From: Pseudodesulfovibrio mercurii
Lineage (GTDB): Bacteria > Desulfobacterota > Desulfovibrionia > Desulfovibrionales > Desulfovibrionaceae
Assembly: GCF_000189295.2 (NCBI RefSeq)
Contig: NC_016803.1
Coordinates: 1,470,001 to 1,502,000, forward strand
Direction of reading: 5' to 3'
DNA: 32,000 nt
This document shows, in pieces, positions 2,919-21,458 of the stretch. Every line of letters starts with the position of its first letter. The stretch's first letter is position 1. Under the pieces are notes generated by a model. That model did no database searches and was not told where the DNA came from. It was given only the letters and a program-made list of their open reading frames with translations. The translations under genes were made by a program, and so were the position numbers.

Positions 2919-2934
2919 TGGCATGCGAGTTGCT
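2919..2934 (+). promoter_or_regulatory. Sigma54 (RpoN) -24/-12 promoter
   Basis: TGGCATGCGAGTTGCT against the consensus TGGCACG-N4-TTGCW. GG and GC are at the canonical 12-nt offset. It sits about 53 nt upstream of ATG 2987, directly preceded by an AT-rich stretch (2886-2917). Confidence 0.75.
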
Positions 2935-2986
2935 AAGTTCGGGCAGCTATTGCGGAATAACAACCGATCAACCCAACGGTGACATC

Positions 2987-3421
2987 ATGGAAAAGATGAA
3001 AATCCTGCTCGTGGACGATGAAGAGCGCCTGCTCAGCACCACGAAAAAGCTCTTCGAAAAGCTCGGCATCGAGGCGCGCACGGCCACCTCGGGGGCCGAC
3101 GCCCTGGAGGTGCTGAAGACCTATGAAGCGCATGTCATCTTCCTCGACATCAAGATGCCCGGGATGGACGGCATGGAGACGCTCCAGCACATCAAGAAGG
3201 AATACCCCCTCAGCGAGGTCATCATCCTCACGGGCCACGCCACCATGGAGACAGCGGTGGAAGGCCTCAAGCTCGGCGCTCTCGACTACCTGATCAAGCC
3301 CGTCAGCATGAAGGACTTTCTGAGCAAGGCCGAGGAGGCCTTCGAAAAGGTCACGCTCCAAAAACAAAAGATACATTCTGCCCGTATGGCCGAGTCAGCC
3401 GGGCAGGGTGAACTGCGCTAG
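2987..3421 (+). CDS. Stand-alone response-regulator receiver protein (REC1, 144 aa)
   Basis: Lies inside ORF 2918..3421. The 5' part of that ORF overlaps the sigma54 promoter, so the start is placed at ATG 2987 (MEKMKILLVDDEE). Receiver hallmarks: LLVDDE, FLDIKMPGMDG, ILTGHA, YLIKP. Only a short tail follows, with no output domain. Confidence 0.9.
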   Translation: MEKMKILLVDDEERLLSTTKKLFEKLGIEARTATSGADALEVLKTYEAHVIFLDIKMPGMDGMETLQHIKKEYPLSEVIILTGHATMETAVEGLKLGALDYLIKPVSMKDFLSKAEEAFEKVTLQKQKIHSARMAESAGQGELR

Positions 3422-3441
3422 CTAACTTCAAGGAGGTTGTA

Positions 3442-4341
3442 ATGGTTAAAATCAAGGTCCTCATGGTAGACGATGAGGAGCGCTTCCGCACCACCACTGC
3501 GAAGATACTGGCCCGCAAAGGATTCGACACGATCCTGGCGGCCAGTGGGGAAGAGGCGTTGGAAAAACTGGCCGAACGGCCGGACGTCGTCGTTCTGGAC
3601 GTCAAGATGGGTGGGCTCGACGGTCACGAGACGCTCAAATTGATGAAGGAAAAGATGCCGGAGCTGCCGGTGATCATGCTCACCGGGCACGGCGACATGC
3701 CCGGGGCCAAGAAGGCGCTGGACACCGGAGCCTTCGACTACCTGGCAAAGCCCTGCGACGTGGATCTCCTGAGCACCAAGCTCCAGGACGCCTTCGAGTA
3801 CGCCACCAAGGCACCGTACGTCGAAAAACTGGCCAGAGGGATCATGATCCCCCTGGCGGAATACACCCAGATCCCCCTGAACAGCACCGTGCGTGACGCC
3901 ATCAAGGCCCTGGAGGACTCCATGCGCCACCTGATGGCCACGGACCGGCTCATGGACACGGGTCACCGCTCGGTGGTCGTCACCAACACCGACGGCAGCG
4001 TGGCCGGCCTGCTCAGCCCGCTCGACCTGATCGACGCCATCCGGCCCGGCTATCTGTCCGCGCCCAAACCGTCCATGGCGGACAGCCTGCAATACTCGGC
4101 CATGTTCTGGCAGGGGCTGTTCTCCTCGCGCGTCAAGGAAGTCATGAACAATCCCGTTCGCGACATCATGTCCGACACCCTGCCGGTCATCGACGCCGAC
4201 GCCAACCTCATGGACGTGGCCAACAACATGATCACGCTCCCGGCCCGACGCATGCTCGTCAGGGCGGGCAACGAGGACATCGGCATCGTCCGCGAACAGG
4301 AACTCTTCTACGAAATCGCCAAGATCATTTCGTCCAGCTAA
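3442..4341 (+). CDS. Response-regulator receiver fused to a CBS-pair domain (REC2-CBS, 299 aa)
   Basis: RBS AAGGAGG at 3430-3436. N-terminal receiver motifs: VLMVDDEE, VVVLDVKMGGLDG, MLTGHG, YLAKP. The C-terminal ~160 aa show two CBS-like repeats (IMIPLAEYTQIPLNSTVRDAIKAL..VVVTNTDGSVAGLLSPLDLI, then VRDIMSDTLPVIDADANLMDVANNM..LVRAGNEDIGIVREQELF). Confidence 0.85.
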   Translation: MVKIKVLMVDDEERFRTTTAKILARKGFDTILAASGEEALEKLAERPDVVVLDVKMGGLDGHETLKLMKEKMPELPVIMLTGHGDMPGAKKALDTGAFDYLAKPCDVDLLSTKLQDAFEYATKAPYVEKLARGIMIPLAEYTQIPLNSTVRDAIKALEDSMRHLMATDRLMDTGHRSVVVTNTDGSVAGLLSPLDLIDAIRPGYLSAPKPSMADSLQYSAMFWQGLFSSRVKEVMNNPVRDIMSDTLPVIDADANLMDVANNMITLPARRMLVRAGNEDIGIVREQELFYEIAKIISSS

Positions 4342-4368
4342 CCCGAAGTCCGAGAGCGAGGTTACAAC

Positions 4369-6219
4369 ATGGCTCAAGCAAAGAAGAAAGCAACCGGTTA
4401 CGACAAGTACGTCAACTGGAAGCTGCTCATAATTCCGGTGGTACTTTTCGCTGTGATCCTTGCCCTTCCCGTGCCGCAAGGCATGAAGGACGTAGGCATG
4501 CAATATTCGGTCGGACCCAAGGTGGTGTCCAACTATCTCTGTGAACAACTCTTCCAGAAAAAGAGCTCCGACTGCGAACAGTGGCAGATCCTGACCGCCC
4601 GCATGATGGAGCAGAACATGCGCATGGGCGCGCTGTCCAAGGCGCGGCTGATGAAGCGCAACGAGAAGTGGGCCAAGACCTACAAGATTCCCGTGGATTC
4701 GGCCAACTTCAAGCGGGCCATCGAGTACGTCAAGGACAACGTGCCCGACGATGCCTACCTGACCCTGATGAAGAGCGCCTTCGACCTGCGCATGAAGGGG
4801 CTCAAGTACGACAACCTGTCGGAAAAGGACCAGAAGAGCGCAACCAAGGGCGCATGGGACATCAAGGTCTCCATCGCCATGGTCGTGTTCGTGGTCTTCT
4901 GCTTCATGACCGAGTGCATGCCCCTGCCGGGCGTGGCATTCTGCATCGGCCTCATCCTGGTCTTCACCGGCGTCGTCTCGCGAAGCGCGGTGGCCGGGCT
5001 GTACTGGGATGACGCCTGCTGGTTCATCATGGGTTCGCTCATGTTCGCCGCCGCCTTCGTAAAGACCGGCGTGGACAAGCGCATGTGCCTCATGATGTTC
5101 AAGAAGCTCGCCGTACCCAACGTCCGTTGGATCACGTTGATCTTCTTCATCGTCATCACCCCGCTGGCGGCGTTCATCTCCGACCACGCGCTGGCGGCCA
5201 TGTTCCTGCCCATCGGCATGCTGCTCTACCAGAACAGCCTGACCGACGAGATTCCCGAGGACAAGGAGCTGGCCAAGATGCTGATGATCGCCATCGCCAT
5301 GGCCTGCAACATCGGCGGCCCCGGCGCTCCGTCCGGCGGCGCCCGCAACGTCATCATGATGACCTACCTGACCGACATGTTCGGCATGGACATCGGCTAC
5401 GCCCAGTGGATGATGTACTGTATGCCGTTCATCATCGTCATGATCCCGATCACCTGGTTCGTCACCAACATGCTCTTCAAGCCCCGCATCCGCTCCCTGG
5501 CCCCGGCCATGCGCCACCTCGAGGGCGAAATCAGCAAGATGGGCAAGTGGAACAAGAGCCAGATCTGGGCGATGATCATCTTCGTCGTCATGGTCTTCGG
5601 CTGGTTCACTGAGAAGGAGTTCTACAACATGGGCATCTACCCCGTGCGGCTCGGCATCGGCGTCATCGCGGTCGCGGGCGCTGTGGCCTACCTGCTCGCG
5701 GGCGTGGTCAACTGGCGTGACTACCAGGAAAAGGTCGACTGGGGCGTTGTCTGGCTGTACGCGGGCGCGATCATCTTCGGCCGTACCCTGGACAAGTCCG
5801 GCGCAGCCTTCTGGCTGGCCCAGTCGGTCATCGACCTGCTGGCCCCGCTGGGCATGAGCCACGGCATCCCGCTGATGCTCACCTCCAACGGGTTGACCGC
5901 CGTGCTGACCAACCTGATGGCCGACGGCCCGGCAGCCGCCGCGGTCGGTCCCATCACCCTGAACATGGCCAGCATCGTGCACCCCGGCACCACCTTCCTG
6001 CCCTTCATGGCCATGGCCACCGCAGTGGCGTCTTCCTTCGCCTACTGCCTGATCATCGGCACCCCGCCCAACGCCATCGTCTACGCCTCCGGTTACCTGG
6101 AGCCCAAGGACTACCTGCGTGTGGGCATCCCCATGTGGTTCGTCGCCAACATCGTCATCGTCCTGCTGACGGCGGTCTACTGGAGCGGCATCGGGTTCGG
6201 CAACCTGCCTGCATTCTGA
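4369..6219 (+). CDS. SLC13/DASS-family (Na+/sulfate-dicarboxylate type) anion permease with a ~130-aa hydrophilic insertion after TM1
   Basis: 616 aa with many hydrophobic segments. SSFAYCLIIGTPPNAIVYASG closely resembles the SLC13 signature SSFAFMLPVATPPNAIV. A second hairpin-like motif is NIGGPGAPSGGARNVIMM. Residues ~36-165 (nt 4474-4863) are hydrophilic and rich in K/E/M. Confidence 0.85.
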   Translation: MAQAKKKATGYDKYVNWKLLIIPVVLFAVILALPVPQGMKDVGMQYSVGPKVVSNYLCEQLFQKKSSDCEQWQILTARMMEQNMRMGALSKARLMKRNEKWAKTYKIPVDSANFKRAIEYVKDNVPDDAYLTLMKSAFDLRMKGLKYDNLSEKDQKSATKGAWDIKVSIAMVVFVVFCFMTECMPLPGVAFCIGLILVFTGVVSRSAVAGLYWDDACWFIMGSLMFAAAFVKTGVDKRMCLMMFKKLAVPNVRWITLIFFIVITPLAAFISDHALAAMFLPIGMLLYQNSLTDEIPEDKELAKMLMIAIAMACNIGGPGAPSGGARNVIMMTYLTDMFGMDIGYAQWMMYCMPFIIVMIPITWFVTNMLFKPRIRSLAPAMRHLEGEISKMGKWNKSQIWAMIIFVVMVFGWFTEKEFYNMGIYPVRLGIGVIAVAGAVAYLLAGVVNWRDYQEKVDWGVVWLYAGAIIFGRTLDKSGAAFWLAQSVIDLLAPLGMSHGIPLMLTSNGLTAVLTNLMADGPAAAAVGPITLNMASIVHPGTTFLPFMAMATAVASSFAYCLIIGTPPNAIVYASGYLEPKDYLRVGIPMWFVANIVIVLLTAVYWSGIGFGNLPAF

Positions 6220-6244
6220 CGACCCTGAACCATAACCATCCAAC

Positions 6245-6273
6245 CCGGCGGCCCGCCTCGGGCGGGCCGCCGG
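6245..6273 (+). terminator. GC-rich hairpin, candidate terminator or attenuator after the permease gene
   Basis: CCGGCGGCCCGCC (6245-6257), loop TCG, GGCGGGCCGCCGG (6261-6273): a perfect 13-bp stem. No U-tract follows (TCCACAAAAGG). Confidence 0.5.
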
Positions 6274-6292
6274 TCCACAAAAGGAAGTGAAC

Positions 6293-6448
6293 ATGAACAT
6301 GGAAGAGACCACCGACCGCAAACAGGCATTCGTCCACAAGAACGGCGTGACCTACTTCAGCAAGCGGACCGAACGACGCGTCCTGTTCCTGATGACCATG
6401 GCCATGCTGGTCTGGGGCATCGTGGAATACGCCGGGATTCTGTTCTAG
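6293..6448 (+). CDS. Small membrane protein (51 aa), below the ORF-track length cutoff
   Basis: RBS AAGGAAG at 6281-6287, ATG at 6293, TAG at 6446-6448. Translation: MNMEETTDRKQAFVHKNGVTYFSKRTERRVLFLMTMAMLVWGIVEYAGILF. It has one hydrophobic helix, and third-codon positions are GC-rich like neighbouring genes. Confidence 0.55.
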   Translation: MNMEETTDRKQAFVHKNGVTYFSKRTERRVLFLMTMAMLVWGIVEYAGILF

Positions 6449-6481
6449 ACACACCGACCTGCAACACATGGGGGGCAAACC

Positions 6482-7030
6482 ATGGAAGCAACAAGCGAAA
6501 ATACCGCACGGATGGGGATCCGGGAATATTTTGAAACCCTGATGGACGTCATGCGCTCGCCCGCGCGCTACTTCGAGCGGGTCGCGGCCGAGCCGGGCTC
6601 CCGGCGGGCGCTCATCTTCCTGATGATCTCGGGCCTGTTCTACTGCTCGGTGAGCATGGCCTACTTCTTCGAGAACTCCCTGGCCATGGGCATCGTCATG
6701 ATGCTCAACGCCATCCTCATGCCCGCCTTCGGCGCGGTCATCACCTTCATCCTGATCGGGATGACCGGTCAGGAACGCGTGCCCTTCGGACGCATCTTCA
6801 ACATCTACGCATACGCCAGCGGCGCGGTCATGGTCATCTCCTGGATACCGGGCCTGGCCATCGTCATGGAGCCGGTGCGGGCCGTGCTCATCGGCGTGGG
6901 CCTGCACAAGGCGGCCGGGGTGGGCAAGGTCCGGGCGGCCCTGCTCATCATCCTGACCGCCGTGGTCCTGCTCCTCTTCTTCTGGAGCGCCGCGCCCATG
7001 ATCGTCGAACTGAAGCAATTGTTCCACTAG
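6482..7030 (+). CDS. Multi-pass membrane protein, Yip1-domain-like (tentative)
   Basis: 182 aa. A hydrophilic N-terminus (REYFETLMDVMRSPARYFERVAAEPG) is followed by about 5 hydrophobic segments. The layout resembles bacterial Yip1-family proteins, but the family call is by pattern only. Confidence 0.6.
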   Translation: MEATSENTARMGIREYFETLMDVMRSPARYFERVAAEPGSRRALIFLMISGLFYCSVSMAYFFENSLAMGIVMMLNAILMPAFGAVITFILIGMTGQERVPFGRIFNIYAYASGAVMVISWIPGLAIVMEPVRAVLIGVGLHKAAGVGKVRAALLIILTAVVLLLFFWSAAPMIVELKQLFH

Positions 7031-7039
7031 GAGTCACCC

Positions 7040-7057
7040 CGCGCTGCGGGCAGCGCG
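7040..7057 (+). terminator. Short GC hairpin after the membrane-protein gene (weak terminator candidate)
   Basis: CGCGCTGC-GG-GCAGCGCG, with perfect 8-nt arms, 10 nt after the stop at 7030. No U-tract. Confidence 0.3.
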
Positions 7058-7145
7058 CGAGATGCATTCCTTACCCTCCCCATCCGGCCGGGGGCATGCC
7101 CCCGCCCCCGGCTCCGGACGGGAGGACGCACACGGGAGGACCGCC

Positions 7146-7529
7146 ATGCAAAAGATTCGTCTGCTCCTGGTCGATGACGAAACCGATTTCCTGAACGCCT
7201 ACGCCCGCCGCTTCGCGCGCCGGAACGTGGAGACCACCCTGGCCGCCAGCGGCCAGGAGGCCATCGACCTCGTCCGCGACGACGAGTTCGACGTGGTCGT
7301 CATGGACGTGATGATGCCGGGCATGAGCGGGCTCGAGACCCTGCGGCGGCTCAAAGCCATCAAGCCGGACCTGCCGGTCATCATCCTGACCGGCCACGCC
7401 GATTCCCGGGTGCTCATCGAGGGTATGGACATGGGGGCCTTCGACTTCCTGCTCAAGCCCGTGGGCACCGACGAGCTCTATTTCAAGGTGCTGGACGCCG
7501 TCCGCACCCGCCGTCGCGGCCAACCGTAG
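7146..7529 (+). CDS. Stand-alone response-regulator receiver protein (REC3, 127 aa)
   Basis: Lies inside ORF 7062..7529. RBS GGGAGGA at 7134-7140, then ATG at 7146 (MQKIRLLLVDDETD). Motifs: VVVMDVMMPGMSG, ILTGHA, FLLKP. Confidence 0.9.
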   Translation: MQKIRLLLVDDETDFLNAYARRFARRNVETTLAASGQEAIDLVRDDEFDVVVMDVMMPGMSGLETLRRLKAIKPDLPVIILTGHADSRVLIEGMDMGAFDFLLKPVGTDELYFKVLDAVRTRRRGQP

Positions 7530-7544
7530 ACCCGGAGGTTCGCC

Positions 7545-10142
7545 ATGAAGACCGCGCTCAAGACCCTGTTCCACTTCATCCACGGCAATCCCGAGGGAAA
7601 GCGTGAAGCGGTTGAAAAGTTCCTCAACAAGTCCGAAGACTTCCGACTTCTGCTCTCGGCCAACGGCAAGGCCCTGGAGCTCATGGCCGAGATGACGGAC
7701 GCGGCCCGGTCGGGCCAGCCGTCCGGGATCACCCGGGTGCGGGCGTTCAGCGTCATGGTCGCCTCCAGCGTCCGCCAGATGATCGAACGCCTCTGCCGCA
7801 TGGCCCCCGGCCGGTACGATGGCCTGCGCGAGGCCTTCAACGAGATCGTCCGGGACATGGACCAGGCCTTTTCCGGCCCGGCCAAGGGCCCGCTCGGTCC
7901 CCCGGTCATCCGCATGCGCGACGTGCGCGCCATCGACCTGCCCGAGACCGGCTCCAAGGTAGCCATGCTCGGCGAGATCCGGGCCGAACTCGGCGCGGTG
8001 GTGCCGCGCGGCTTCGCCATCACGGCCTCGGCCTTCCGCCTATTCATGCAGTCCACGGGGTTGGACGACGAGATCAACCGGCTCATCCAGATTCATGACG
8101 GGACCACCCTGGAGGAGCTGAGCGATCTGGCCGCGGGCATCCGCCAGGCCATCGACATGGCCCCCATGCCCCGCGAACTGGAAGAGGCCGTGCGCGAACA
8201 GTGCGCCCGCCTGGGCGACATCCGCTTCGCCGTGCGCTCGAGCGCGCTGGGCGAGGACTCGGAACAAACCGGGTTCGCCGGACAGTTCATCTCCAAGCTC
8301 GGCATCAAGCCCGCCCAGGTGACCGACGCCTACCGCGCGGTCATCTCGAGCATGTATTCGGCCACGGCCATCACCTACGTGCGCAACCGGGGGTTGCGCG
8401 AGGACGAAATGGTCATGGCCGCCGGATGCATGGAGATGATCAACGCCGTGGCCGGCGGGGTGGTCTACACCCGGCCCCCGGTGGGCGGCGACGCGGACAC
8501 GCTGATCATCAACGCCGTGCCCGGCCTGCCCTGCGCCGTGGTGGACGGCAGCTCCCTGGCCGACTCCTGGACCGTGGACCGAGGGACCGGCAGGATCGTG
8601 AGCCGCGACATCGCCGAAAAGGAAATCCGCTTCGTGCTGACCTCGGGCGGACAGGTGCGCAAGGAAAAGCTCTACGGCGGCCGCGAACTGGAACCGGCCA
8701 TCTCGGACCACGACGCCGAGCGGCTGGCCGCCCTGGCCCTGCGCATCGAGGAGCACTTCGGCCACCCCCAGGACATCGAGTGGGCCCGCGACCGCGACGG
8801 GCTGATCGTCATTTTGCAGTGCCGTCCCCTGACCATCTGCGAGGAGACGGCCGAGCTTCCGGCCGAGGACGAGGAGAGCCGGGGGCTGGCCATCCTGTCC
8901 GGCTGCATCCCGGCCAGCCCGGGCGCTGCCGCGGGCTACGTGGTCAAGGTCGAGACGGACGAGGACATGTTCCGCTTCCCGGACGGCGCGGTCCTGCTGG
9001 CCCGCAACGCCCGGCCGCAGCTGTCCGCCCTGCTGCCGCGCGCCGCCGCCCTGGTGGCCGAGTTCGGCAGCTCCGTGGGCCACCTGGCCAACGTGGCCAG
9101 GGAATACGCCGTGCCCGCGCTCATCGGCGCGCCCGGCGCGGTGGAGCGGCTGTCCGGCGTTGGCGTGATCACGGTCAACGGGACCAACGGGACCATCTAC
9201 CTGGGACGGCGCAAGCGGATGATCGAGCGGGAGGCCCGCCCGGCGGCCAAGATGCGCACCACGGACGTGGGGCTGGCCCTGGAACGGGTCCTCAAGTTCA
9301 TCACCCCGCTCAACCTGACCGACCCCGAGTCCCCGGACTTCCGGCCCGAGGGGTGCCGGTCCATGCACGACATAACGAGGTTCTGCCACGAAAAGGCGGT
9401 CCACGAGATGTTCACCCCGGGCGAGCGACCCGTGACGGGCGCGCGCAGGCTGGCCGGACAGCAGGCCATGCAGTACTGGCTGGTGGACATCGGCGGAGGC
9501 ACCGCGGGCGCCGACGGGAACGGGTCCCGCCGGAACATCACCATCGAGGACGTCCGGTCCAGCCCCATGCGCGCCCTGTGGTACGGCATGATGGCCGTGC
9601 CCTGGGAGGGCCCGCCGCCCCCGCGCATGGACGGGTTCATGTCGGTCATGACCAACGCGGCCCAGAACCCGGCCCTGGTGGCCGGGGCGCGCAACGACAT
9701 GGGCGAGCGCAACTACTTCATCGTGGGCGGCCACTACTGCAACCTGCAATCCCGGTTCGGCTTCCACTTCTGCACCATCGAGGGATTCGCGGGCGACGAC
9801 CCCAACGTCAACTACGCCCTGTTCCAGTTCAAGGGAGGCGGGGCGAGCATGGACCGCCGCCACCTGCGCGCGCGCCTGGTGTCCGAGGTCCTGGAAAAGC
9901 GCGGCTTCATCGCCGAAATCCGCGAGGACTCCCTGTTCGCGCGGCTGGAGGGCGTGGGCCGCCCGGTGGTGGAGCAGGCCATGGCCATGCTCGGCTACCT
10001 GCTCATGCACACCCGGCAGATCGACATGTCCATGGCCGACCCGGCCATGGTCGTCCGCTACCGCGACAAGTTCGAGGCGGACATCGAGGAACTGCTGGAA
10101 GGATTGCCCGGCGAGCTGCGGGAAGCGGGGTGCGCGGCATGA
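7545..10142 (+). CDS. PEP-synthase/PPDK-like protein: N-terminal helical region, PPDK_N-type ATP-grasp, phospho-His swivel domain, and an uncharacterised ~300-aa C-terminal domain (865 aa)
   Basis: RBS GGAGG upstream. ATP-grasp hallmarks: GSKVAMLGEIRAELGAVVPRGFAITASAF, VRSSALGEDSEQTGFAGQF, DIEWARDRDGLIVILQCRPLT. Swivel-domain hallmarks: AVLLARNARPQLSALLPRAAALVAEFGSSVGHLANVAREYAVPALIG, with the candidate phospho-His codon CAC at 9081-9083. The C-terminal ~300 aa (nt ~9225-10139) do not read like a PEP/pyruvate-binding TIM barrel. Confidence 0.85.
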   Translation: MKTALKTLFHFIHGNPEGKREAVEKFLNKSEDFRLLLSANGKALELMAEMTDAARSGQPSGITRVRAFSVMVASSVRQMIERLCRMAPGRYDGLREAFNEIVRDMDQAFSGPAKGPLGPPVIRMRDVRAIDLPETGSKVAMLGEIRAELGAVVPRGFAITASAFRLFMQSTGLDDEINRLIQIHDGTTLEELSDLAAGIRQAIDMAPMPRELEEAVREQCARLGDIRFAVRSSALGEDSEQTGFAGQFISKLGIKPAQVTDAYRAVISSMYSATAITYVRNRGLREDEMVMAAGCMEMINAVAGGVVYTRPPVGGDADTLIINAVPGLPCAVVDGSSLADSWTVDRGTGRIVSRDIAEKEIRFVLTSGGQVRKEKLYGGRELEPAISDHDAERLAALALRIEEHFGHPQDIEWARDRDGLIVILQCRPLTICEETAELPAEDEESRGLAILSGCIPASPGAAAGYVVKVETDEDMFRFPDGAVLLARNARPQLSALLPRAAALVAEFGSSVGHLANVAREYAVPALIGAPGAVERLSGVGVITVNGTNGTIYLGRRKRMIEREARPAAKMRTTDVGLALERVLKFITPLNLTDPESPDFRPEGCRSMHDITRFCHEKAVHEMFTPGERPVTGARRLAGQQAMQYWLVDIGGGTAGADGNGSRRNITIEDVRSSPMRALWYGMMAVPWEGPPPPRMDGFMSVMTNAAQNPALVAGARNDMGERNYFIVGGHYCNLQSRFGFHFCTIEGFAGDDPNVNYALFQFKGGGASMDRRHLRARLVSEVLEKRGFIAEIREDSLFARLEGVGRPVVEQAMAMLGYLLMHTRQIDMSMADPAMVVRYRDKFEADIEELLEGLPGELREAGCAA

Positions 10143-11815
10143 GTTCCTCCACCTACTCCCGACTCAAGTGGTACCTGGTGCTGATCATCATGGGGTTCTC
10201 CCTGGTCCCGCTCTTCGCCCTGGGCTACTTCATCCACAACGAATTCCGGCAGACCTACGAGGAGAAGCTGACCGACAACCTGCGGCTGATGGTCGCCAAC
10301 CGCCGCGACGCCATCTCCATGTTCCTCAACGAGCGGGTGGTCCAGCTCCAGATGCTGGCCGACATCCACACCTTCGGCGAGATGTCGGACCAGGCCTACC
10401 TGAACAAGGTCTTCGACGCCATCCACGGCACGTCCAGCTCCTTCTTCGACATCGGGGTCATCGGCCAGAACGGCGGCCACGAGGCCTACTGCGGGCCCTT
10501 CGACCTGATGCAGGTCAACTACAAGGACGAACCGTGGTTCCATCAGGTCATGCTCAAGGGGCTGTATATCAGCGACGTGTTCATGGGCTTCCGCAACTTC
10601 CCGCACTTCATCATCGCGGTGAAGCGGCAGGAGGCGGGCCGGACCTGGATTCTGCGGGCGACCATCGACTCCGAGGTGTTCACCTCGCTGGTGCGCAACG
10701 TGCGCACAGGCAAGCAGGGCGACGCCTACATCGTCAACGACAAGGACGTGCTCCAGACCCCGTCGCGCTTCGGCGGCAAGGCCCTGACCAGGGTCGTCCT
10801 GCCCGTGCACCCGCAGGGCGAGGGTGTGGAGATACAGTCCTGGCGGCGGGACGGCGTTCCGATCATCGCCGGGATCACTCCCCTGCCCAACACCAACTGG
10901 CGGCTGGTCATCATGGAGAACCCCGAGGAGGAGCTCTCCCCGCTGATTCGCACCCGCTCGCTGATCTACGCCCTGTTCGCCGGCTGCGGCCTGATGATCT
11001 TCGTCGGGGCCTACGTGACCGTGTCCTCGGCCGTGTCCCGGCTGCGGGCCTCGGACCGCCAACGCGCGGCCATGGACGCGGCGGTCATACAGTCGAGCAA
11101 GATGGCGTCCCTGGGCAAGCTGGCCGCGGGCGTGGCCCACGAGGTCAACAACCCCCTATCCATCATCCGCGAGAGCGCGGGCTGGATACGGGACATCATC
11201 AACGACGGCGAACTCGGCGAAGGCCCGGCCGTGGACGAACTCCAGGAGGCGGTCTCCGACATCGACCGCCACGTGGAGCGGGCCCGGACCGTGACCCACC
11301 GCATGCTCGGCTTCGCCCGGCGCATGGAGCCCCTCCAGGAGGACGTGGACCTGAACATGCTGGCCAACCAGACCGCCTCCTTCCTGGAGAACGAGACCCG
11401 GCACCGGAACATCGAGGTCGTCACCGAGCTGGACCCGGATCTGCCGCTGATCACCACCGACGCCAACCAGATACAGCAGGTCATCCTGAACCTGCTCGAA
11501 AACGCCATCGACGCCATCGACCGCGACGGCCAGATCACGGTGATCACCCGGACGGACGACATGGGCGTGGTCCTGAACATCGCCGACAGCGGGCCGGGCA
11601 TCCCAAAGGAATACCTGGCAAAGGTGTTCGACCCGTTCTTCACCACCAAGCCCACCGGCGAAGGGACCGGTCTGGGGCTGTCCATCGTCTACAGCACCTT
11701 GAGCAAGCTGGGCGGGACCATCAAGGTCAACAGCGAATCCGGACAGGGCACGACCTTCACCATCCACCTGCCCCTCACCGGTCCGCGATTCACGAGCGCC
11801 AAGGAGGAAGCATGA
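10139..11815 (+). CDS. Sensor histidine kinase (HK1) with a periplasmic Cache-like domain (558 aa)
   Basis: ATG at 10139 overlaps the upstream stop (ATGA). The upstream 1938 nt of track ORF 8201..11815 are an out-of-frame shadow. [31 protein letters not shown] (TM1) is followed by ~250 aa with a Cache-like pattern ([28 protein letters not shown]), then TM2. H-box [15 protein letters not shown]; N and G boxes [25 protein letters not shown]. Confidence 0.9.
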
Positions 11816-12210
11816 CCCAGATACGCGTACTTGTGGTTGACGACGAACCCGATTTCCTGAAGCTCATCCAGCGGCGGCTGACCAAACGGAACGTGCACGT
11901 GGACACCGTGACCAACGGCGAGGCCGCCCTGGCCTTCCTCCGGGAGAATCCGGTGGACGTGGTCATCCTCGACGTGCGCATGCCGGGGCTGTCCGGCATC
12001 GACACCCTGAAGGAGATCCGCAAGCGGTTCCGCGACACCGAGGTCATCATGCTGACCGGGCACGGCTCCCTGCAATCGGGCATCGAGGGCATCAGCCTCG
12101 GGGCCTACGACTACATCCTCAAGCCGTTCTCCATCGACAACCTGCTCGGGCGCATCCGCTCGGCCAACGAACACCTCAAGCTGCGCATCGAGAGGCGGGA
12201 ACCGCAATGA
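11812..12210 (+). CDS. Stand-alone response-regulator receiver protein (REC4, 132 aa)
   Basis: RBS AAGGAGGAAG upstream. ATG at 11812 overlaps the HK1 stop (ATGA). [38 protein letters not shown]. Confidence 0.9.
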   Translation: MTQIRVLVVDDEPDFLKLIQRRLTKRNVHVDTVTNGEAALAFLRENPVDVVILDVRMPGLSGIDTLKEIRKRFRDTEVIMLTGHGSLQSGIEGISLGAYDYILKPFSIDNLLGRIRSANEHLKLRIERREPQ

Positions 12211-13124
12211 GTCTGACCTACGCCCGACGGGTGATCATGCTCGGCCGTTCGGCCTACCCCGTGTCCTGCCTGGCCGTGGGCGCGGCCGCCTGGTTTCACG
12301 GGCGCACCGGGGACGGACTGGCCCTGGCCGCGGCCCTGGCCATCGTCTGCGGCATGTGGCTGCTGCTTTTCGCCTCGTCGCACTGGCTGGGCCAGGCAGA
12401 GGCCGAACGCGACGAGATGGGCGAACAGCTCATCCAGTCCCAGCGGGTCCTGGCCCTGGGCGAACTGTCCACGGGCATCGCCCACGAGATCAACAACCCC
12501 CTGAACATCATCCTTCAGGAGGCCGAGCTCATGCGCTACGACCTGGCCCTGGCCCCCACGGCCGAGACCATGGAGGAGGTCCGGTCCAGCCTGGACGTCA
12601 TCTACGCCCAGGTCTCGCGCTGCTCGGACATCACCCACAAGCTCCTGGACCTGGCCCGCAACCGCAAGCCCGTGTCCCAACCCGCGGACATCAACCGGCT
12701 GGTGGAGGACATGCTCGAGCTGGTGGAGCGCGAGGCCGGCCCCCGGGAAATCCATCTCCACCGGCGGCTCAGCCAGGATCTGCCCACCGTCATCTCGGAC
12801 CCGCCGCTGCTGCGCCAGGTCATCCTCAACCTGCTGATCAACGCGATCCAGGCCGTGGACAAGGACGGCGACATCTTCATCACCACCCATCGCGAGGGGA
12901 ACATGGCCTACACCGAAATCCGGGACACCGGGCCGGGCATCTCCGAGGAGAACCGCAAGCGCATCTTCAACCCGTTTTTCACCACCAAGGCCCCCGGCCA
13001 GGGCACCGGGCTCGGCCTGTCGGTCAGTCTGCGAATCATCAACGAACTGGGCGGGGACATTCAGGTGGCCTCCGCTCCGGGCAAGGGCGCCACGTTCACC
13101 GTGCGCATTCCCATCAAACGATAA
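12207..13124 (+). CDS. Histidine kinase (HK2) with a minimal two-helix membrane anchor and no sensor domain (305 aa)
   Basis: ATG at 12207 overlaps the REC4 stop (ATGA). It has two hydrophobic segments (YPVSCLAVGAAAWF and LALAAALAIVCGMWLLLFA). H-box STGIAHEINNPLNII; NLLINAIQA, DTGPGIS, GTGLGLSVS. Confidence 0.9.
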   Translation: MSLTYARRVIMLGRSAYPVSCLAVGAAAWFHGRTGDGLALAAALAIVCGMWLLLFASSHWLGQAEAERDEMGEQLIQSQRVLALGELSTGIAHEINNPLNIILQEAELMRYDLALAPTAETMEEVRSSLDVIYAQVSRCSDITHKLLDLARNRKPVSQPADINRLVEDMLELVEREAGPREIHLHRRLSQDLPTVISDPPLLRQVILNLLINAIQAVDKDGDIFITTHREGNMAYTEIRDTGPGISEENRKRIFNPFFTTKAPGQGTGLGLSVSLRIINELGGDIQVASAPGKGATFTVRIPIKR

Positions 13125-13134
13125 GAGGTGTATC

Positions 13135-13563
13135 ATGACCAATAAGGCGAGAATCCTCGTTGTGGACGACGAGGACCGGTTCCGGCAGTCCCTGTGCCGT
13201 CTGCTGCGCGCGGAGGGCTATACCGTGGACGCGGCCGAAAACGGGCTCGACGCCCTGAACAAACTGGCCACGAACGAGTTCGACGTGGTCCTGCTGGACA
13301 TGAAGATGCCCGGCATGTCGGGCTCGGAGACCTTCAACGAAATACAGCTCCAGGGTTTCGACGTGGAGACCGTCTGCCTGACCGGACACACCTCCATCAG
13401 CGACGCCATGAAGCTGCTGCACAACGGGGTCTTCGACTACCTGCTCAAGCCCGCGTCCATGCCGGAGATTATCGAGACCGTGCAGCGGGCCCTGGAGCGC
13501 AAGCTGCTGCGCCACGGGGAGATCGGCGTGTCGGAACTGATAGACGGGTCCGGAGGGCGCTAG
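13135..13563 (+). CDS. Stand-alone response-regulator receiver protein (REC5, 142 aa)
   Basis: MTNKARILVVDDEDR, VVLLDMKMPGMSG, CLTGHT, YLLKP. It starts 10 nt after the HK2 stop. Confidence 0.9.
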   Translation: MTNKARILVVDDEDRFRQSLCRLLRAEGYTVDAAENGLDALNKLATNEFDVVLLDMKMPGMSGSETFNEIQLQGFDVETVCLTGHTSISDAMKLLHNGVFDYLLKPASMPEIIETVQRALERKLLRHGEIGVSELIDGSGGR

Positions 13564-13598
13564 GCCGCCGGACCCGGCGCAAGGCCCGGGAGGGTTTC

Positions 13599-15122
13599 AT
13601 GGACGATTTCGCATACGAGAACCTCGGCATCTGCTACTGGAACGGATCGCTCGGCCCGTTCAACGTGGGCGTGGTGGGCACCGGCTCCATGCTCCGGGTC
13701 CTGCTCGACATCATCTACAACGAGGCCTTCCGCGAATTTCTGCCCGAGATGTGCCTGGCGGCCATCAGCGACACCGGCCCCGGCGAAACCCTGCCCGAGG
13801 ACTGCGAGACCTGTCCCATCTATCCGACCTACCGGGAGATGCTCGACGCCCACCCCGAGATCAACCTGGTGGTGGAGATCACCGGCGACCGGGGCGTGGC
13901 GGCCCGGCTGCGGCACGAGCTGCCCGCTTCCGTCTCGCTCATCGACCACCGGGAACTGGTCTTCCTGTGCGGGCTGCACGACATGGCCGTGGTCAAGGGC
14001 CACTACATGACCAGCCTGGACCACCAGCGCACCCTGATCCAGTCCATCATCGACGAGATCCGCGAGGACATCTTTCTCCTGGACAAGAGCGGCGACATCC
14101 AGGACCTGAACCGCACGGTCTGGCAGCGGGCGGGCGTACCGCGCAAGGAGCTGCTCGGCAAGCCGTGCTGGGAGGCCGCCCGGCTGCGCGACGGCTCCCC
14201 CTTCTGCAACCAACTGGACCCGGTCTGCCCCTTCCACAAGACGTTGCTCAGCGGCCGCAAGGAAGAGGCCATGGTCACCCGGGTCAACGGCAGCGGCCTG
14301 CTCCAGTATTACCGGCTCTATGCCTACCCGATCTTCGACATGCGCGGGCAAATGTCCCACATCATGGTCATGCACCGCGACATCACCGAGCGGACCCAGC
14401 GCGAGAAGTACCAGCAACAGCAGGACAAGTTCGCCATCATCGGCGAGATATCCACCTACCTGGCCCACGAGATCCGTAACCCGCTGTACGCGGTGGGCGG
14501 GTTCGCCAACGCCCTGCTGCGCTCGCCCAAGCTGGACGAACAGGAGCGCGAAAAGGTCCAGATCATCGTGGAGGAGACCCTCCGTCTGGACAAGCTTTTG
14601 ACCAACATGCTCAATTTCGTGCGCCCCGCGCCCGGTCCCGGCGCGGCCGTGGACCTGGTGGCAGTGTGCCGCGACGTGGCCGAGCTCATGGACGTGGGTT
14701 ACGGACGCCAGGGCTACAACATCTTGGTCCGGCCCGAGGCGAACCTGCCCGCGGTCCAGGGGGACGCCGACGCCCTCAAGCAGTGCCTGGTGAACATCAT
14801 CAAGAACTCCATCGAGGCCATGCCCGGCGGCGGCCAGATCGTCGTGGACCTGACCATGGGCAAGAGCGACGTGGTCGTGCGCATCATCGACACGGGCACG
14901 GGCATGAGCGAGACCGAGCTGGACCGCGCCTTCAACCCCTTCTACTCCACCAAGGCCGACGGCAACGGCCTGGGACTGCCCCTGATCAAGAAGATCATCG
15001 AGGAGTCCGGGGGCAGCGTGACCCTGGCCAGCCGCCCCGGCAAGGGCACCACCGTGACCCTGCACCTGCAACCGGCCATGGACGTGGACCACCCGCCCGT
15101 GAAGGCCGATAACGATACCTAG
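13599..15122 (+). CDS. Cytoplasmic histidine kinase (HK3): Rossmann-like N-terminal region, Cys-rich PAS domain, HisKA and HATPase (507 aa)
   Basis: Lies inside ORF 13194..15122. RBS GGGAGGG, then ATG at 13599 (MDDFAYENLGICYWNG). The N-terminus has FNVGVVGTGSMLRVLLDII (GxGxxG-like). The PAS region carries GKPCWEAARLRDGSPFCNQLDPVCPFHK. H-box STYLAHEIRNPLYAV; NIIKNSIEA, DTGTGMS, GNGLGLPLI. No hydrophobic helices seen. Confidence 0.88.
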   Translation: MDDFAYENLGICYWNGSLGPFNVGVVGTGSMLRVLLDIIYNEAFREFLPEMCLAAISDTGPGETLPEDCETCPIYPTYREMLDAHPEINLVVEITGDRGVAARLRHELPASVSLIDHRELVFLCGLHDMAVVKGHYMTSLDHQRTLIQSIIDEIREDIFLLDKSGDIQDLNRTVWQRAGVPRKELLGKPCWEAARLRDGSPFCNQLDPVCPFHKTLLSGRKEEAMVTRVNGSGLLQYYRLYAYPIFDMRGQMSHIMVMHRDITERTQREKYQQQQDKFAIIGEISTYLAHEIRNPLYAVGGFANALLRSPKLDEQEREKVQIIVEETLRLDKLLTNMLNFVRPAPGPGAAVDLVAVCRDVAELMDVGYGRQGYNILVRPEANLPAVQGDADALKQCLVNIIKNSIEAMPGGGQIVVDLTMGKSDVVVRIIDTGTGMSETELDRAFNPFYSTKADGNGLGLPLIKKIIEESGGSVTLASRPGKGTTVTLHLQPAMDVDHPPVKADNDT

Positions 15123-15483: not shown

Positions 15484-16107
15484 TTACTCCGGGGACTTGG
15501 GAGAAGGTGTGGTGTGTTGGGGGGAGGGGAAAGCGGGGCCCATGTGCTCCGGACCGCCCTGGGCCAACTCGCGCCGGACCTCGTCGAGGTCGATGATGCG
15601 CGGAGCCACCAGAGTGAAACCCGAGGCGTCGCACCAGTCGTGGCTGGTGGCGAACTCGTTGCCGTAGCGGATTTCGTCCAGAATGTAGTAGCCCTCTTCG
15701 CCCATGATGCGGTCCCACTGGTGAACCATGAACTCGAACTTGGAGGGGTCGTACTCGGAGACATTGCTCCACTTCCAGGAAAACTTGCAAATTTCGTTGT
15801 CGAAGCCGAGCACGCAGAGATACTTTGCCCGGCTGTCCAGGAACATGCGTCGGCGAATCTGTAGGGGGTGGGCGATGATGTTGCCGTAATCGAACTCCAC
15901 CGGCTTGCCATCCACCGTTACCTGGATATTGCACATGTCGTCGATGCGCATGCCCCAGGTGGCGGTGTTGCCCTTGCGCCACCATTCCAAGGCCTTCATG
16001 GAATAGACGTCGGGGCCGTACTTCTCGATGGTGCGGGCCGTCTTCTCGGAAACCGGATGCAGGGCAAGGTCACAAGAATGACCGTGTGCGCTAAAAATTA
16101 TTTCCAT
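15484..16107 (-). CDS. Hypothetical cytoplasmic protein (207 aa), no recognisable family
   Basis: Lies inside ORF 15484..16179. The start is placed at ATG 16107-16105 because of the AAGGAG RBS ~10 nt upstream (AAAAGGAGTATGGATAATGG). MEIIFSAHGHSCDLALHPVSEKTARTIEKYGPDVYSMKALEWWRKGN... Codon usage resembles neighbouring genes. The C-terminal tail is Pro-rich. Confidence 0.75.
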   Translation of the reverse strand: MEIIFSAHGHSCDLALHPVSEKTARTIEKYGPDVYSMKALEWWRKGNTATWGMRIDDMCNIQVTVDGKPVEFDYGNIIAHPLQIRRRMFLDSRAKYLCVLGFDNEICKFSWKWSNVSEYDPSKFEFMVHQWDRIMGEEGYYILDEIRYGNEFATSHDWCDASGFTLVAPRIIDLDEVRRELAQGGPEHMGPAFPSPQHTTPSPKSPE

Positions 16108-16152
16108 TATCCATACTCCTTTTGGCTGGTCGCGTTTTCTGTTTCTCCACTT

Positions 16153-16168
16153 TGCATAGGGCATGCCG
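16153..16168 (-). promoter_or_regulatory. Possible sigma54-type promoter for the hypothetical gene
   Basis: The minus strand reads CGGCATGCCCTATGCA. GG and GC have the canonical 12-nt offset, but the first base is C rather than T and the -12 box is ATGC rather than TTGC. It sits ~46 nt upstream of ATG 16107. Confidence 0.35.
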
Positions 16169-16198
16169 GAGGGGGCCAAATCAAAATATTTTTTTCAC

Positions 16199-18295: not shown

Positions 18296-18311
18296 TGGTA
18301 CGCATATTGCT
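18296..18311 (+). promoter_or_regulatory. Sigma54 -24/-12 promoter of the ABC-transporter/dihydropyrimidinase operon
   Basis: TGGTACGCATATTGCT against TGGCACG-N4-TTGCW, with one mismatch in the -24 box. It sits ~62 nt upstream of ATG 18373 and is preceded by AT-rich DNA (18225-18290). Confidence 0.7.
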
Positions 18312-18372
18312 CATGTTGTGCATATCAACAACGCACGTCTGCCATCCGAGCAGCGCCACACAAGGAGGACAT

Positions 18373-19446
18373 ATGCGCAGAAGGGAGTTCCTGAAATATT
18401 CGGCCATGGGCGCCATGGGCACCATGCTCGGCACGGTTCCGGGCCTGTCATGGGCCGCCGACAAAGCCGTGCACTGGCTGACCTGGGAAAACCTGGCCTA
18501 CGACAAGTACGTGGCCGACTTCACCAAATCCACCGGCATTTCCATTGAAAAGGGGTTCATCGGCTCCGATGACGAGCAGTTTGCCAAGATTCGCGCGGGC
18601 GGCGGGGCCGACTGGGACCTGATCACCCCCGGACTGGACAAGGTCGAGCTCTACGTGGCCGCCGACCTGCTCCAGCCCCTGGACCTCTCCAAGATCCCCA
18701 ACGCCGCCAAGCGGTACGCCCCGTTCATGAACACCCCGCTGGGCAAGAAGGACGGCCAGGTCTACGGCCTGCCCTTCTACTGGGGCATCAACCCCATCGT
18801 CTACCGCGCCGACCTCATGGACAAGGAGCCCGACTGGTCCACCCTGTTCGAGGGTGAGAAGTACAAGGGCCGCCTGGCCATGCGCGACTACGCCCTGGAG
18901 GCCATCGCCATCGCCGCCATGTACGTGGGCATCCCCCGCGAGCGCATCTTCAAGATGGACGACAAGGAGCTGGCCGAGTGCAAGAAGGCCTGCATCGCCC
19001 AGAAGAAGCTGCTGCGCACCTACTGGAACTCCATCGCCGACCTGACCAACCTGTTCGCCACCGGCGAGGTGGTCTGCGCCTTCTCCTGGGTCCCGCCCTA
19101 CTACGACCTGCGCGCCAAGGGCATCAACATGGGCATGGCCAAGCCCAAGGAAGGGGTCATCGGCTGGTGCGACACCTGCGCCATCCCCAAGGACGCCTCC
19201 CCCGAGGGAGCCGCCGCGGCCCACGAACTGATCAACTACGTCATCGGACCCGACTACGGCTACAAGCTCGCCCTGGACGGCCCCTACGCCATCTCCACCT
19301 CCACGGCCCGCGACAGGCTGACCCCCGAGGAGCAGGAGCGCATCTTCATCAAGGACATCGGCGTCATGGACAGCTTCGTCTGGAAGGAGAACCCGGCCGA
19401 CTACGGCAAGTGGGTGCGCATCTGGAACGAAGTCAAGGCCAGCTAG
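18373..19446 (+). CDS. Periplasmic substrate-binding protein of an ABC importer, PotD/PotF (polyamine-type) family, with a twin-arginine signal peptide
   Basis: Lies inside ORF 18307..19446. RBS AAGGAGG at 18362-18368, then ATG at 18373. MRRREFLKYSAMGAMGTMLGTVPGLSWAADK looks like a Tat signal. The mature part reads like the PotD family (WDLITPG, LQPLDLSKIPN, YWGINPIVYR). Confidence 0.8.
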   Translation: MRRREFLKYSAMGAMGTMLGTVPGLSWAADKAVHWLTWENLAYDKYVADFTKSTGISIEKGFIGSDDEQFAKIRAGGGADWDLITPGLDKVELYVAADLLQPLDLSKIPNAAKRYAPFMNTPLGKKDGQVYGLPFYWGINPIVYRADLMDKEPDWSTLFEGEKYKGRLAMRDYALEAIAIAAMYVGIPRERIFKMDDKELAECKKACIAQKKLLRTYWNSIADLTNLFATGEVVCAFSWVPPYYDLRAKGINMGMAKPKEGVIGWCDTCAIPKDASPEGAAAAHELINYVIGPDYGYKLALDGPYAISTSTARDRLTPEEQERIFIKDIGVMDSFVWKENPADYGKWVRIWNEVKAS

Positions 19447-19449
19447 TAC

Positions 19450-20570
<1,121 letters not shown>

Positions 20571-20574
<4 letters not shown>

Positions 20575-21458
20575 GCCTGAAGCGCATCGACCGCGTCCGG
20601 CAACTGACCCTGCTGGCCCTGACCGGGCCCAACGTCCTGTTCCTGGCCTTCTTTTGCGTGGCCCCCCTGGCCGTGCTCTTCAGCTACAGCTTTTTCCAGG
20701 TGGATTTCGTGGCCATCGTGCGCGATCCCACCCTGGCCAACTACGGCCGTGTCCTCGAAAGCTCGACCTACCGAGGCCTTGTGGTCAAGGCCCTGGTCTA
20801 CGGCATCGGCATCGCGGCCCTGTGCTCGGTCATCGCCTACCCCCTGGCCTTCTTCATCGCGAAAAAGGTCAAGGTCTACAAGGCCGCCCTGCTGACCCTG
20901 CTGCTCATCCCGCTGTACACCGGCGACCTGATCCGCATCTTCGCCTGGCGCGTGGTCCTCGGGGCCGAGGGCGTGCTCAACTCCCTGCTCATGTGGCTCG
21001 GGATCATCAAGGAGCCCATCTGGGTGCTCCTGTTCTCCCCCTTTTCCACGGTGGTGGTCCTGACCTACAACTACCTGCCCTTCATGGTCCTGCCCCTGTG
21101 GGCGGCCCTGGAGGCCATGGACAACTCCTATCTCGAAGCCGCCATGGACCTGGGCTGCCGCCACATGGCCACCTTCTTCAAGGTGGTCCTGCCCCTGACC
21201 GGCGCGGGACTCATCGCGGGCTTCATGATGGTCTTCGTCCTGGTGGTCGGCGACTACCTGACCCCGCAGCTCATCGGCGGGTCCTCGGGCGTGACCGTGA
21301 CCAGCGCCATCCACGACATGTTCGGCGCGGCCTTCGACTGGCCCACCGGCTCGGCGCTGGCCTGGGTGCTCCTGACCGCCATGGCCGCCTTCATCACGGC
21401 CACGGTCTATCTCTTCTACAAGTCCCCCTGGGGACGCGGCATCAGGGGGGCGAAATAA
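20571..21458 (+). CDS. ABC transporter permease, PotB-like (295 aa)
   Basis: ATG at 20571 overlaps the ATPase stop (ATGA). MSLKRIDRVRQLTLLALTGPNVLFLAFF... It has six hydrophobic segments and an EAA-type loop, YLEAAMDLGCRHMATFFKVVLPL. Confidence 0.88.

Follow-up and report, generated by a model that had tools for sequence, protein, structure and literature searches.

Two gene clusters already described resemble the locus that we analysed, a run of 12 genes for receivers, histidine kinases, an anion permease and a dikinase-like protein within a 32,000-nucleotide stretch of Pseudodesulfovibrio mercurii DNA (NC_016803.1, positions 1,470,001 to 1,502,000; hereafter the window). One was reported from Desulfobacteraceae, including Desulfosarcina variabilis, in a paper (PMC11887813, Sci Adv 2025) whose text describes two DASS-type sulfate transporters, Dvar_38230 and Dvar_38430, as abundant and constitutively made, with many two-component and CBS genes alongside. 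According to the same text the cluster is conserved in 26 sulfate reducers, and in the model its authors propose, external sulfate is sensed by Cache kinases, the regulators work at promoters, and the CBS proteins detect adenosine 5'-phosphosulfate (APS) or ATP and touch the transporter. The highly conserved DASS proteins correspond to group Ci of Marietou et al. (PMC5840216), a member of which is expressed at high sulfate. The other is the 'nitrate cluster' of D. vulgaris and D. alaskensis (DVU0251-DVU0245 and Dde_0597-0605; Korte et al. 2014, PMC4001038), which contains a TauE permease, a hypothetical protein, a binding protein, a kinase, a single receiver and a protein consisting only of PPDK_N and mobile domains. 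Transposon mutants in its permease, receiver and PPDK-like genes were alike nitrate resistant; G20 mutants were mildly impaired on thiosulfate, and the authors suggested a leaky thiosulfate transporter (PMC4001038). In Dissulfuribacter a 'PEP synthase', TauE and the membrane partner of TauE go up together during thiosulfate disproportionation.

We propose that the window holds the Desulfovibrionaceae form of a cluster with which sulfate reducers take up sulfur oxyanions, putatively sulfate, an identification that is very probably correct. The cluster type is already in the literature, and the locus is a lineage-specific variant rather than something categorically new. The features that call for an explanation are the receiver-only design, the sigma54 control and a dikinase-like protein family that links the DASS and TauE clusters. 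As an overall explanation we favour control in two layers, one of transcription and one of protein activity, to which we assign a probability of roughly one half. The genes and control elements concerned are the following (window coordinates).

2836-2889, + strand: upstream activator-type repeats, the palindrome TTTGCGCGCAAA plus three further TYGCR elements (positions 2839, 2856, 2867, 2881)
2919-2934, + strand: sigma54-type promoter (-24 GG / -12 GC), TGGCATGCGAGTTGCT; consensus match and conservation
2987-3421, + strand: REC1, single-domain receiver of 144 amino acids (aa); Pfam Response_reg 2.6e-30, synteny
3442-4341, + strand: REC2-CBS, receiver fused to a CBS pair, 299 aa; Pfam Response_reg and two CBS stretches
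4369-6219, + strand: DASS (SLC13) permease, 616 aa; Pfam Na_sulph_symp 1.1e-48, TIGR00785 above cut-off
6245-6273, + strand: 13-bp GC hairpin right after the permease stop; free energy (dG) -34.9 kcal/mol, z -3.7
6292-6447, + strand: sTM, small membrane protein of 51 aa; homologous open reading frames (ORFs) in relatives
6482-7030, + strand: Yip1-family membrane protein, 182 aa; Pfam Yip1 1.7e-11
7029-7125, + strand: two GC-rich hairpins (7029-7071 and 7075-7125) between Yip1 and REC3; total dG -65.7 kcal/mol, z -3.6
7146-7529, + strand: REC3, single-domain receiver of 127 aa; Pfam
7545-10142, + strand: dikinase-like protein (PPDK_N plus PEP-utilizers), 865 aa; Pfam PPDK_N 1.2e-77, PEP-utilizers 1.6e-13
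10139-11815, + strand: HK1, membrane histidine kinase with a dCache-like periplasmic domain; Pfam, BLASTP against HK0
11812-12210, + strand: REC4, single-domain receiver of 132 aa; Pfam 2.6e-33
12207-13124, + strand: HK2, histidine kinase with a two-helix membrane anchor only; Pfam HisKA and HATPase_c, sequence
13135-13563, + strand: REC5, single-domain receiver of 142 aa; Pfam 2.5e-28
13599-15122, + strand: HK3, cytoplasmic PAS histidine kinase; Pfam PAS_4, HisKA, HATPase_c
1-2641, - strand: 5' part of the gene for the membrane protein 'BIG', which runs off the window start; phmmer 1807 bits to L003:5252-8272

An earlier reading of this DNA (the original prediction) had placed 12 same-strand genes behind the sigma54-type promoter at 2919-2934, and our analysis of the ORFs agrees. 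Each domain that it named was found again by Pfam, run on all 12 proteins, or by NCBIfam, run on eight of them (all except the four bare receivers). Intergenic spacing within the run is -4 to 115 nucleotides (nt). The REC4 gene overlaps the HK1 and HK2 genes by 4 nt each, and 15 nt separate the REC3 stop from the start of the dikinase-like gene. The start of REC3 is most likely at 7146 and not, as first taken, at 7062. The organism is a Pseudodesulfovibrio, and the best match, at 92% identity, comes from Desulfovibrio sp. Huiquan2017. An exact-sequence look-up of the window dikinase-like protein returned no match, and homologues were used in its place.

We scanned species-representative genomes with the permease as anchor and annotated the 72 loci so obtained with the window proteins. 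The loci belong to Desulfovibrionaceae, Desulfobacterales, Desulfatiglandales (including NaphS2) and Desulfobulbus, and they share a core in the order HK0 (a dCache kinase), REC1, REC2-CBS, permease, sTM and Yip1. REC1 occurs in 51 of 55 loci and HK0 in 49 of 55; the count is 63 of 68 for REC2-CBS and 59 of 62 for Yip1, which lies downstream of the permease. In most lineages REC1 directly follows HK0. Genes 7-12 (REC3 to HK3) follow the core in 20 of the 53 loci with enough downstream sequence, and all 20 are of the Desulfovibrionaceae type. The block is a composite of a conserved Desulfobacterota core and a lineage-specific add-on. The single 12-gene unit of the original prediction is a same-strand run as claimed, but it is made of these two parts and is split by conserved hairpins. 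Two short permease contigs (L024 and L040) were binned as Anaerolineales and Gammaproteobacteria metagenome-assembled genomes; they look like binning errors, given their 76-79% identity to Desulfobacterota genes. In Maridesulfovibrio salexigens a gene for a methyl-accepting chemotaxis protein (MCP; L002:16021-17991) replaces HK3 at the end of the cluster.

The locus resembles the cluster in the text of PMC11887813 in its Cache-type kinases (HK1 in the window, HK0 in relatives), receivers and CBS protein. The order given there, Dvar_38430 followed by the CBS protein Dvar_38450, is the permease-Yip1-REC/CBS order of the Desulfosarcina locus L058. The window permease is 73% identical to that of L058 and is probably the orthologue of Dvar_38430, judged by gene order and annotation, the Dvar sequence itself not having been aligned. 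The window differs from the cluster as that text presents it in that BIG is inserted and REC3-dikinase-HK1-REC4-HK2-REC5-HK3 is appended. Moreover, the text labels the regulators 'WalR type', whereas we find no winged helix-turn-helix domain in the five receivers, nor room for one in 185 receiver ORFs from related loci. A word search of its main text and of those supplementary files available as text found no mention of sigma54 promoters or a dikinase-like enzyme. With the nitrate cluster (PMC4001038) the locus shares an anion permease, a single receiver, a kinase and a PPDK_N/mobile-His protein, which there form one genetic pathway concerned with the entry of oxyanions (thiosulfate/nitrate). 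In that cluster, however, the permease is TauE and not DASS, and a phosphonate-type binding protein and a phosphatase are present in addition. DVU0246 is probably a member of the dikinase-like family; this assignment comes from annotation and gene order, not from sequence. Should it be a member, both the receiver and the dikinase-like enzyme would promote the function of the transporter.

The five receivers, four of them bare and one fused to a CBS pair, form a paralogous set with 35-44% identity to REC1, and all retain the acidic pair, the phospho-Asp, the Thr, the Lys and the LTGH and KP motifs. In this respect Pfam and residue conservation bear out what was claimed. In the scans described above we detected no helix-turn-helix (HTH), AAA+, GGDEF/EAL/HD-GYP, CheB/R or Hpt domain in the proteins encoded by the 12 genes, and no C-terminal extension of more than 60 aa occurs among the 185 receiver ORFs in the 72 related loci. 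The claim that no receiver carries an output domain thus holds in the window and across these loci, and the domain search by which it was to be checked has returned nothing against it. A phosphorelay in the strict sense, which had also been suggested, is not shown, as neither an Hpt domain nor a hybrid (REC-fused) kinase was found by Pfam or NCBIfam; the N-terminal helices of the dikinase-like protein contain no invariant His in the family alignment. The kinase and receiver residues match those of classical two-component systems, but the receiver-coupled effector domain of such systems is absent here. CheY-FliM, CpdR-ClpXP and DivK offer a likeness: there too a receiver that lacks an output domain governs a partner protein through its phosphorylation state, and a single-domain regulator of Myxococcus activates a membrane phosphoglycosyl transferase (PMC12802240). 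Unlike these, the present locus brings together several paralogous receivers and four kinases.

HK1, HK2 and HK3 each contain HisKA and HATPase_c by Pfam and an H-box, HE(V/I)(N/R)NPL, that we read from the sequences. Their three different inputs had been described from the outset, and Pfam finds the domains that were named, except that the dCache match of HK1 (34.6 bits, E 1.9e-8) lies below the Pfam gathering score of 45 bits. The paralogue HK0, which is 33% identical to HK1 over the full length (BLASTP), passes that score. HK3 combines a GxGxxG-containing N-terminal region with a Cys-rich PAS domain. The best NCBIfam matches of the three kinases are to AtoS/ZraS/NtrB-type models, and those of REC2-CBS, the only receiver scanned with NCBIfam, are to AtoC/NtrC/NtrX-type models.

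Transcription of the locus is, in our judgement, likely to depend on sigma54. The element TGGCATGCGAGTTGCT scores 10/11 on the sigma54 consensus (TGGCAC-N5-TTGCW, exact spacing) and is the sole exact match to TGGCAY-N5-TTGCW on either strand of the 32 kb, where 0.05 are expected by chance. In 23 related loci REC1 is preceded by an equivalent site at the corresponding distance, a second site stands in front of HK0 in 20 loci, and a site scoring at least 9/11 lies by the HK0 or REC1 start in 43 of the 55 loci with enough upstream sequence. The promoter at 2919-2934 that had been pointed out is therefore well supported, both by the uniqueness of the exact match and by its conservation before REC1. 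Upstream of it, TTGCG is enriched 8-fold and CGCAA 14-fold at -130 to -40 from the -24 element in the 23 loci, and between the repeats and the promoter is an AT-rich stretch (2888-2918). AT-rich stretches of this kind often bind IHF. No sigma54 site of at least 9/11 was found before REC3. A scan for the sigma70 consensus gave 4 promoters in the window against 2.0 expected from shuffled background, none of them at a cluster gene boundary, and a scan for U-tailed terminators gave 9 against 7.3 expected, with none at a gene boundary inside the cluster.

The original prediction was that this operon needs an enhancer-binding protein and encodes none. There is indeed none among the 12 genes, but a candidate lies close by in relatives. 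All close relatives encode, divergently from HK0 and some 5 kb upstream of REC1, a sigma54 activator with a length of about 840-870 aa, and full-length orthologues adjoin HK0 in 22 loci (for instance L003:781-3315, - strand). The protein consists of an N-terminal membrane helix, a periplasmic region of about 320 aa, a second helix and an AAA+ domain, and it has no receiver. Its C-terminal region may be a winged-helix-like DNA-binding domain, as read by eye; no Pfam match falls there. Almost all of 23 orthologues carry the loop GAF[ST][DEQ]A in place of GAFTGA, which is uncommon among sigma54 activators. BLASTP found no similarity between the periplasmic region of the activator and the dCache domains of HK0 and HK1. 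In 13 Desulfobacterales and Desulfatiglandales loci the core is instead flanked by a REC-AAA+-HTH (NtrC-type) regulator and a kinase, and the receivers of these 13 regulators resemble REC1 and REC4. A candidate transcriptional actor is always close to the cluster, yet it is none of the five receivers.

HK0 falls outside the window because BIG is inserted between HK0 and REC1. In Desulfovibrionaceae the BIG gene occupies this place on the opposite strand, and in L020 and L043 it is found downstream. The protein has 1006-1034 aa (full length in L003:5252-8272), with a cytoplasmic part of about 660 aa followed by 4-5 membrane helices, and no Pfam domain was found in it. A 1012-aa protein encoded after the dikinase-like gene in L077, a Desulfobacterales contig, was considered as a BIG homologue and rejected; it is HdrA-like and shows no similarity to BIG. 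The gene for this HdrA-like flavoprotein (L077:10678-13716) contains an in-frame TGA (context TNDCAM-U-IISPK), which likely encodes selenocysteine, and is followed by ferredoxin-like and CCG-domain genes.

The permease is very well conserved, being 68-92% identical over all 616 residues in the 72 loci. Between Pseudodesulfovibrio and M. salexigens it is 85% identical, against only 46% for the neighbouring dikinase-like protein. It carries an insertion of about 125 aa after the first transmembrane helix (residues ~40-165), which is probably periplasmic and contains two Cys in NYLCEQLFQKKSSDCEQW. We regard it as a putative sulfate transporter. A homologue of sTM, with the motif GVTYFSKRTER..LF..T..ML.WG, separates the permease from Yip1 in about 60 of 64 loci examined; the gene calls for L001 and L002 include it. 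In other clusters (L077, L090, L126) CBS-only genes precede DASS genes. By analogy, and no more than that, REC2-CBS recalls the CBS gating of MgtE, OpuA and ClC and inducer exclusion by EIIA-Glc, in which a permease is bound by a soluble module that reads an adenosyl ligand or a phospho-state. The CBS pair here is on a separate, receiver-fused protein, whereas in MgtE, OpuA and ClC it is on the transporter.

Strong secondary structure interrupts the run at two points. A GC-rich hairpin after the permease is kept in all Desulfovibrionaceae-type loci, with stem sequences that differ, and an equivalent of the Yip1-REC3 hairpins is visible in related loci. The hairpin after the permease is a candidate partial terminator or mRNA stabiliser, and more generally the hairpins may act as partial terminators, processing sites or stabilisers; none of those at 6245-6273 and 7029-7125 has a U tract. 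As strong conserved hairpins follow both the permease and Yip1, 'one operon' is not established. Rather, the conserved hairpins argue for graded expression in at least three segments over one uniform 12-gene transcript.

The dikinase-like protein comprises a helical N-terminal extension (1-~115), an ATP-grasp domain (135-445), a swivel domain (478-549) with His513, and a highly conserved C-terminal domain (~570-865). His513 is invariant in 45 aligned sequences. Like PEP synthase, PPDK and rifampin phosphotransferase, the protein joins an ATP-grasp domain to a swivelling phospho-His domain with a catalytic His. However, it lacks the phosphoenolpyruvate (PEP)/pyruvate TIM barrel of the first two, with a domain of about 290 aa at the C-terminus in its place, and it lacks the rifampin-binding domain of the third, in which the order is ATP-grasp, substrate domain and C-terminal swivel His. 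The N-terminal extension is a further difference from this superfamily. The protein falls far below every NCBIfam cut-off: the PEP synthase model is matched over positions 7-485 of 798 (294 bits, cut-off 598), and the rifampin phosphotransferase model scores 205 bits against a cut-off of 999, the swivel domain being central in the dikinase-like protein. Matches in the Protein Data Bank (PDB; 8a8e, 2ols, 5hv3 and 1kbl) cover ATP-grasp and swivel only (E 1e-21 to 1e-24 for 2ols and 5hv3), and Pfam PEP-utilizers_C gave no match in the protein. Modelled separately with AlphaFold2, the C-terminal domain is predicted (pLDDT 70) to be a beta-meander with helices and not a TIM barrel, and this model has no significant fold match in the PDB (best E 0.037). 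A motif in this domain, C-x3-HD-x2-R-x-CHE (residues 604-616, window 9354-9392), is nearly invariant across the family, and R737, H741, R771 and R775 are invariant. That these residues together form a metal or oxyanion site is speculative.

The family delimited by the C-terminal domain comprises 1,145 clusters at 50% identity (E<=1e-10), and the domain is almost always found at the C-terminal end of a protein of about 860 aa. We counted gene context in 50 metagenome loci whose sequence extends 3 kb or more upstream of the dikinase-like gene. At least one same-strand single receiver lies within 6 kb upstream in 46 of them and two or more in 29, and an anion permease lies upstream in 45 (TauE in 40, DASS in 10); a sigma54 activator is nearby in only 5. 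The usual order is dCache kinase, three successive receivers, TauE, a 236-aa membrane protein and the dikinase-like protein, and DASS, kinase and receiver often follow. In L077, L081, L099 and similar loci the dikinase-like gene sits between permease genes. Genomes of Pseudodesulfovibrio and Maridesulfovibrio carry both a TauE-linked paralogue and the DASS-linked one found in the window. No similarity was found between the 236-aa partner of TauE and Yip1. An MCP gene is present near the TauE-type cluster in L075.

Based on these observations, we propose a model that addresses how the cluster is transcribed, how its core may control uptake, and what the add-on contributes. The sigma54 promoter, with its TTGCG/CGCAA repeats and AT-rich spacer, would drive REC1, REC2-CBS and the DASS permease. 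The membrane-anchored, receiver-less activator would drive both this promoter and the second promoter at HK0, and the hairpins after the permease and Yip1 would lower or uncouple the expression of the genes downstream.

The second part of the model concerns the core proteins. We suggest that HK0 uses its dCache domain to detect an anion in the periplasm and passes phosphate on to REC1 and REC2-CBS. REC2-CBS would integrate this phospho-signal with an adenosyl ligand on its CBS pair and act on a permease complex (DASS, the 51-aa protein and Yip1), thus tuning uptake. In the add-on, HK1 would provide a second periplasmic dCache input, the sensor-less HK2 may read the membrane complex, and the Cys-rich PAS domain of HK3 could serve for redox or sulfide sensing. 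HK1, HK2 and HK3 would signal via REC4, REC5 and REC3 to the dikinase-like enzyme, with REC3 either controlling this enzyme or serving as its substrate. The enzyme itself would use ATP and His513 to phosphorylate a target bound by its C-terminal domain, and would be a positive factor for the transporter. We put this post-translational layer forward tentatively. Post-translational control of transport had been the gist of the original prediction, and it is consistent with the lack of output domains and with the permease, which is the natural target of the receivers; nevertheless, it is an inference. It is a long shot that the dikinase-like proteins represent a previously unrecognised type of signalling phosphotransferase whose swivel His, loaded by ATP-grasp chemistry, exchanges phosphoryl groups with bare receivers or phosphorylates the accessory membrane proteins of permeases. 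If they were, an ATP/AMP-reading enzyme would be wired into a receiver-only network that gates the uptake of sulfur oxyanions without a transcription factor.

Other explanations have to be weighed against this model. The receivers could end on transcription after all, as phosphate sinks, competitors or connectors for an NtrC-type regulator, whose gene would lie elsewhere or, in other lineages, next to the cluster, or by binding the receiver-less activator, and so set the amount of permease. The NtrB- and NtrC-type affinities of the kinases and of REC2-CBS fit such a role, as do the 13 loci in which the core is flanked by REC-AAA+-HTH regulators with REC1/REC4-like receivers; a sigma54-dependent operon would permit autoregulation, and the D. 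vulgaris mutant phenotypes fail to separate expression from activity. Yet the adjacent activator of Desulfovibrionaceae has its own periplasmic sensor and no receiver, the dikinase family seldom has a sigma54 activator nearby (the 5 of 50 loci above), three to five receivers per cluster, one of them CBS-fused, are many for sinks alone, and the permease is constitutively abundant by the proteomics described in the text of PMC11887813. We consider a purely transcriptional output unlikely. It is also conceivable that the two halves are mere neighbours, genes 7-12 being an independent module whose dikinase-like enzyme works on a small-molecule metabolite unrelated to the permease. The second half is indeed missing from most core loci and is separated from the core by hairpins, and the characterised relatives with ATP-grasp and swivel domains (PEP synthase, rifampin phosphotransferase) all phosphorylate small molecules. 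This is nonetheless improbable, as in independent metagenome loci the dikinase family adjoins TauE or DASS permeases and receivers with the frequencies given above, at times between two permease genes, and as mutants in its probable D. vulgaris homologue phenocopy the transporter mutant.

A role in taxis, with CheY-like receivers binding the flagellar switch and steering cells towards sulfate or away from sulfide, seems to us very improbable. The receivers are single-domain and CheY-like, and MCP genes occur in the place of HK3, only in loci of the M. salexigens type, and near the TauE-type cluster of L075. However, Pfam found no CheA, CheW, CheB or CheR in the window or among the Pfam-annotated genes of L001, L002 and L075-L077 (the other loci were annotated only with reference proteins of this cluster and so are unscreened for Che proteins), the partner kinases are of the classical HisKA type, REC2-CBS matches NtrC-type models best, and the cluster associates with permease genes and not with flagellar genes.

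The two-layer explanation that we prefer must itself contend with several points. NtrB/NtrC-type kinases and receivers are compatible with cross-talk to a distant NtrC-type regulator. The activator is seen in relatives only, outside the window, and its variant GAF loop makes its ability to drive sigma54 uncertain. Contacts between receivers and the permease, Yip1 or the dikinase-like protein are plausible but are a proposal only; no REC-dikinase fusion occurs among the proteins checked, and the four longest family members (P0124, P0140, P0201, P0212) have neither such a fusion nor an extra Pfam domain. Sulfate is a putative substrate of the DASS clade, assigned from taxonomy and from expression and proteome studies and not from a transport assay. 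A search seeded with the TauE-linked paralogue did not list DVU0246 or Dde_0604, and the shared phenotype of the D. vulgaris mutants would fit an effect on expression too.

Sulfate uptake is the first and rate-limiting step of dissimilatory sulfate reduction. Its switching or throttling has been discussed since the physiology of the 1980s and 1990s, and we know of no molecular mechanism for it. The locus ties the 'DASS sulfate transporter cluster' of 2025 to the 'nitrate cluster' of 2014, and it supplies a parts list for genetics: one very conserved permease with two tiny partners in the membrane, a REC-CBS protein, four kinases, four bare receivers and a dikinase-like enzyme that has a new domain. 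Should the permease or the dikinase-like enzyme prove to be what the receivers act on, we would have a common case of two-component signalling that ends on a transporter and not on DNA; how common is hinted at by the 1,145 clusters of the family.

The downstream end of the cluster is marked by a convergent ORF of 231 aa without a Pfam match (15484-16179, - strand), which is followed by a terminator-like hairpin at 15433-15405. Two further sigma54-like sites lie beyond it. One, TGGTACGCATATTGCT (18296-18311, 10/11), is directly upstream of genes for an ABC transporter and an amidohydrolase (18307-23661), the transporter comprising a solute-binding protein, an ATPase with a TOBE domain and a permease. 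The other, TGGCACGGTATCTGCT, at 26096, precedes a fused TRAP DctM-type transporter (26096-27981, + strand). Divergent from this transporter is a gene for a GAF-domain sigma54 activator with a canonical GAFTGA motif (24019-26025, - strand), and the pair (24019-27981) is probably a separate one-component sigma54 system.

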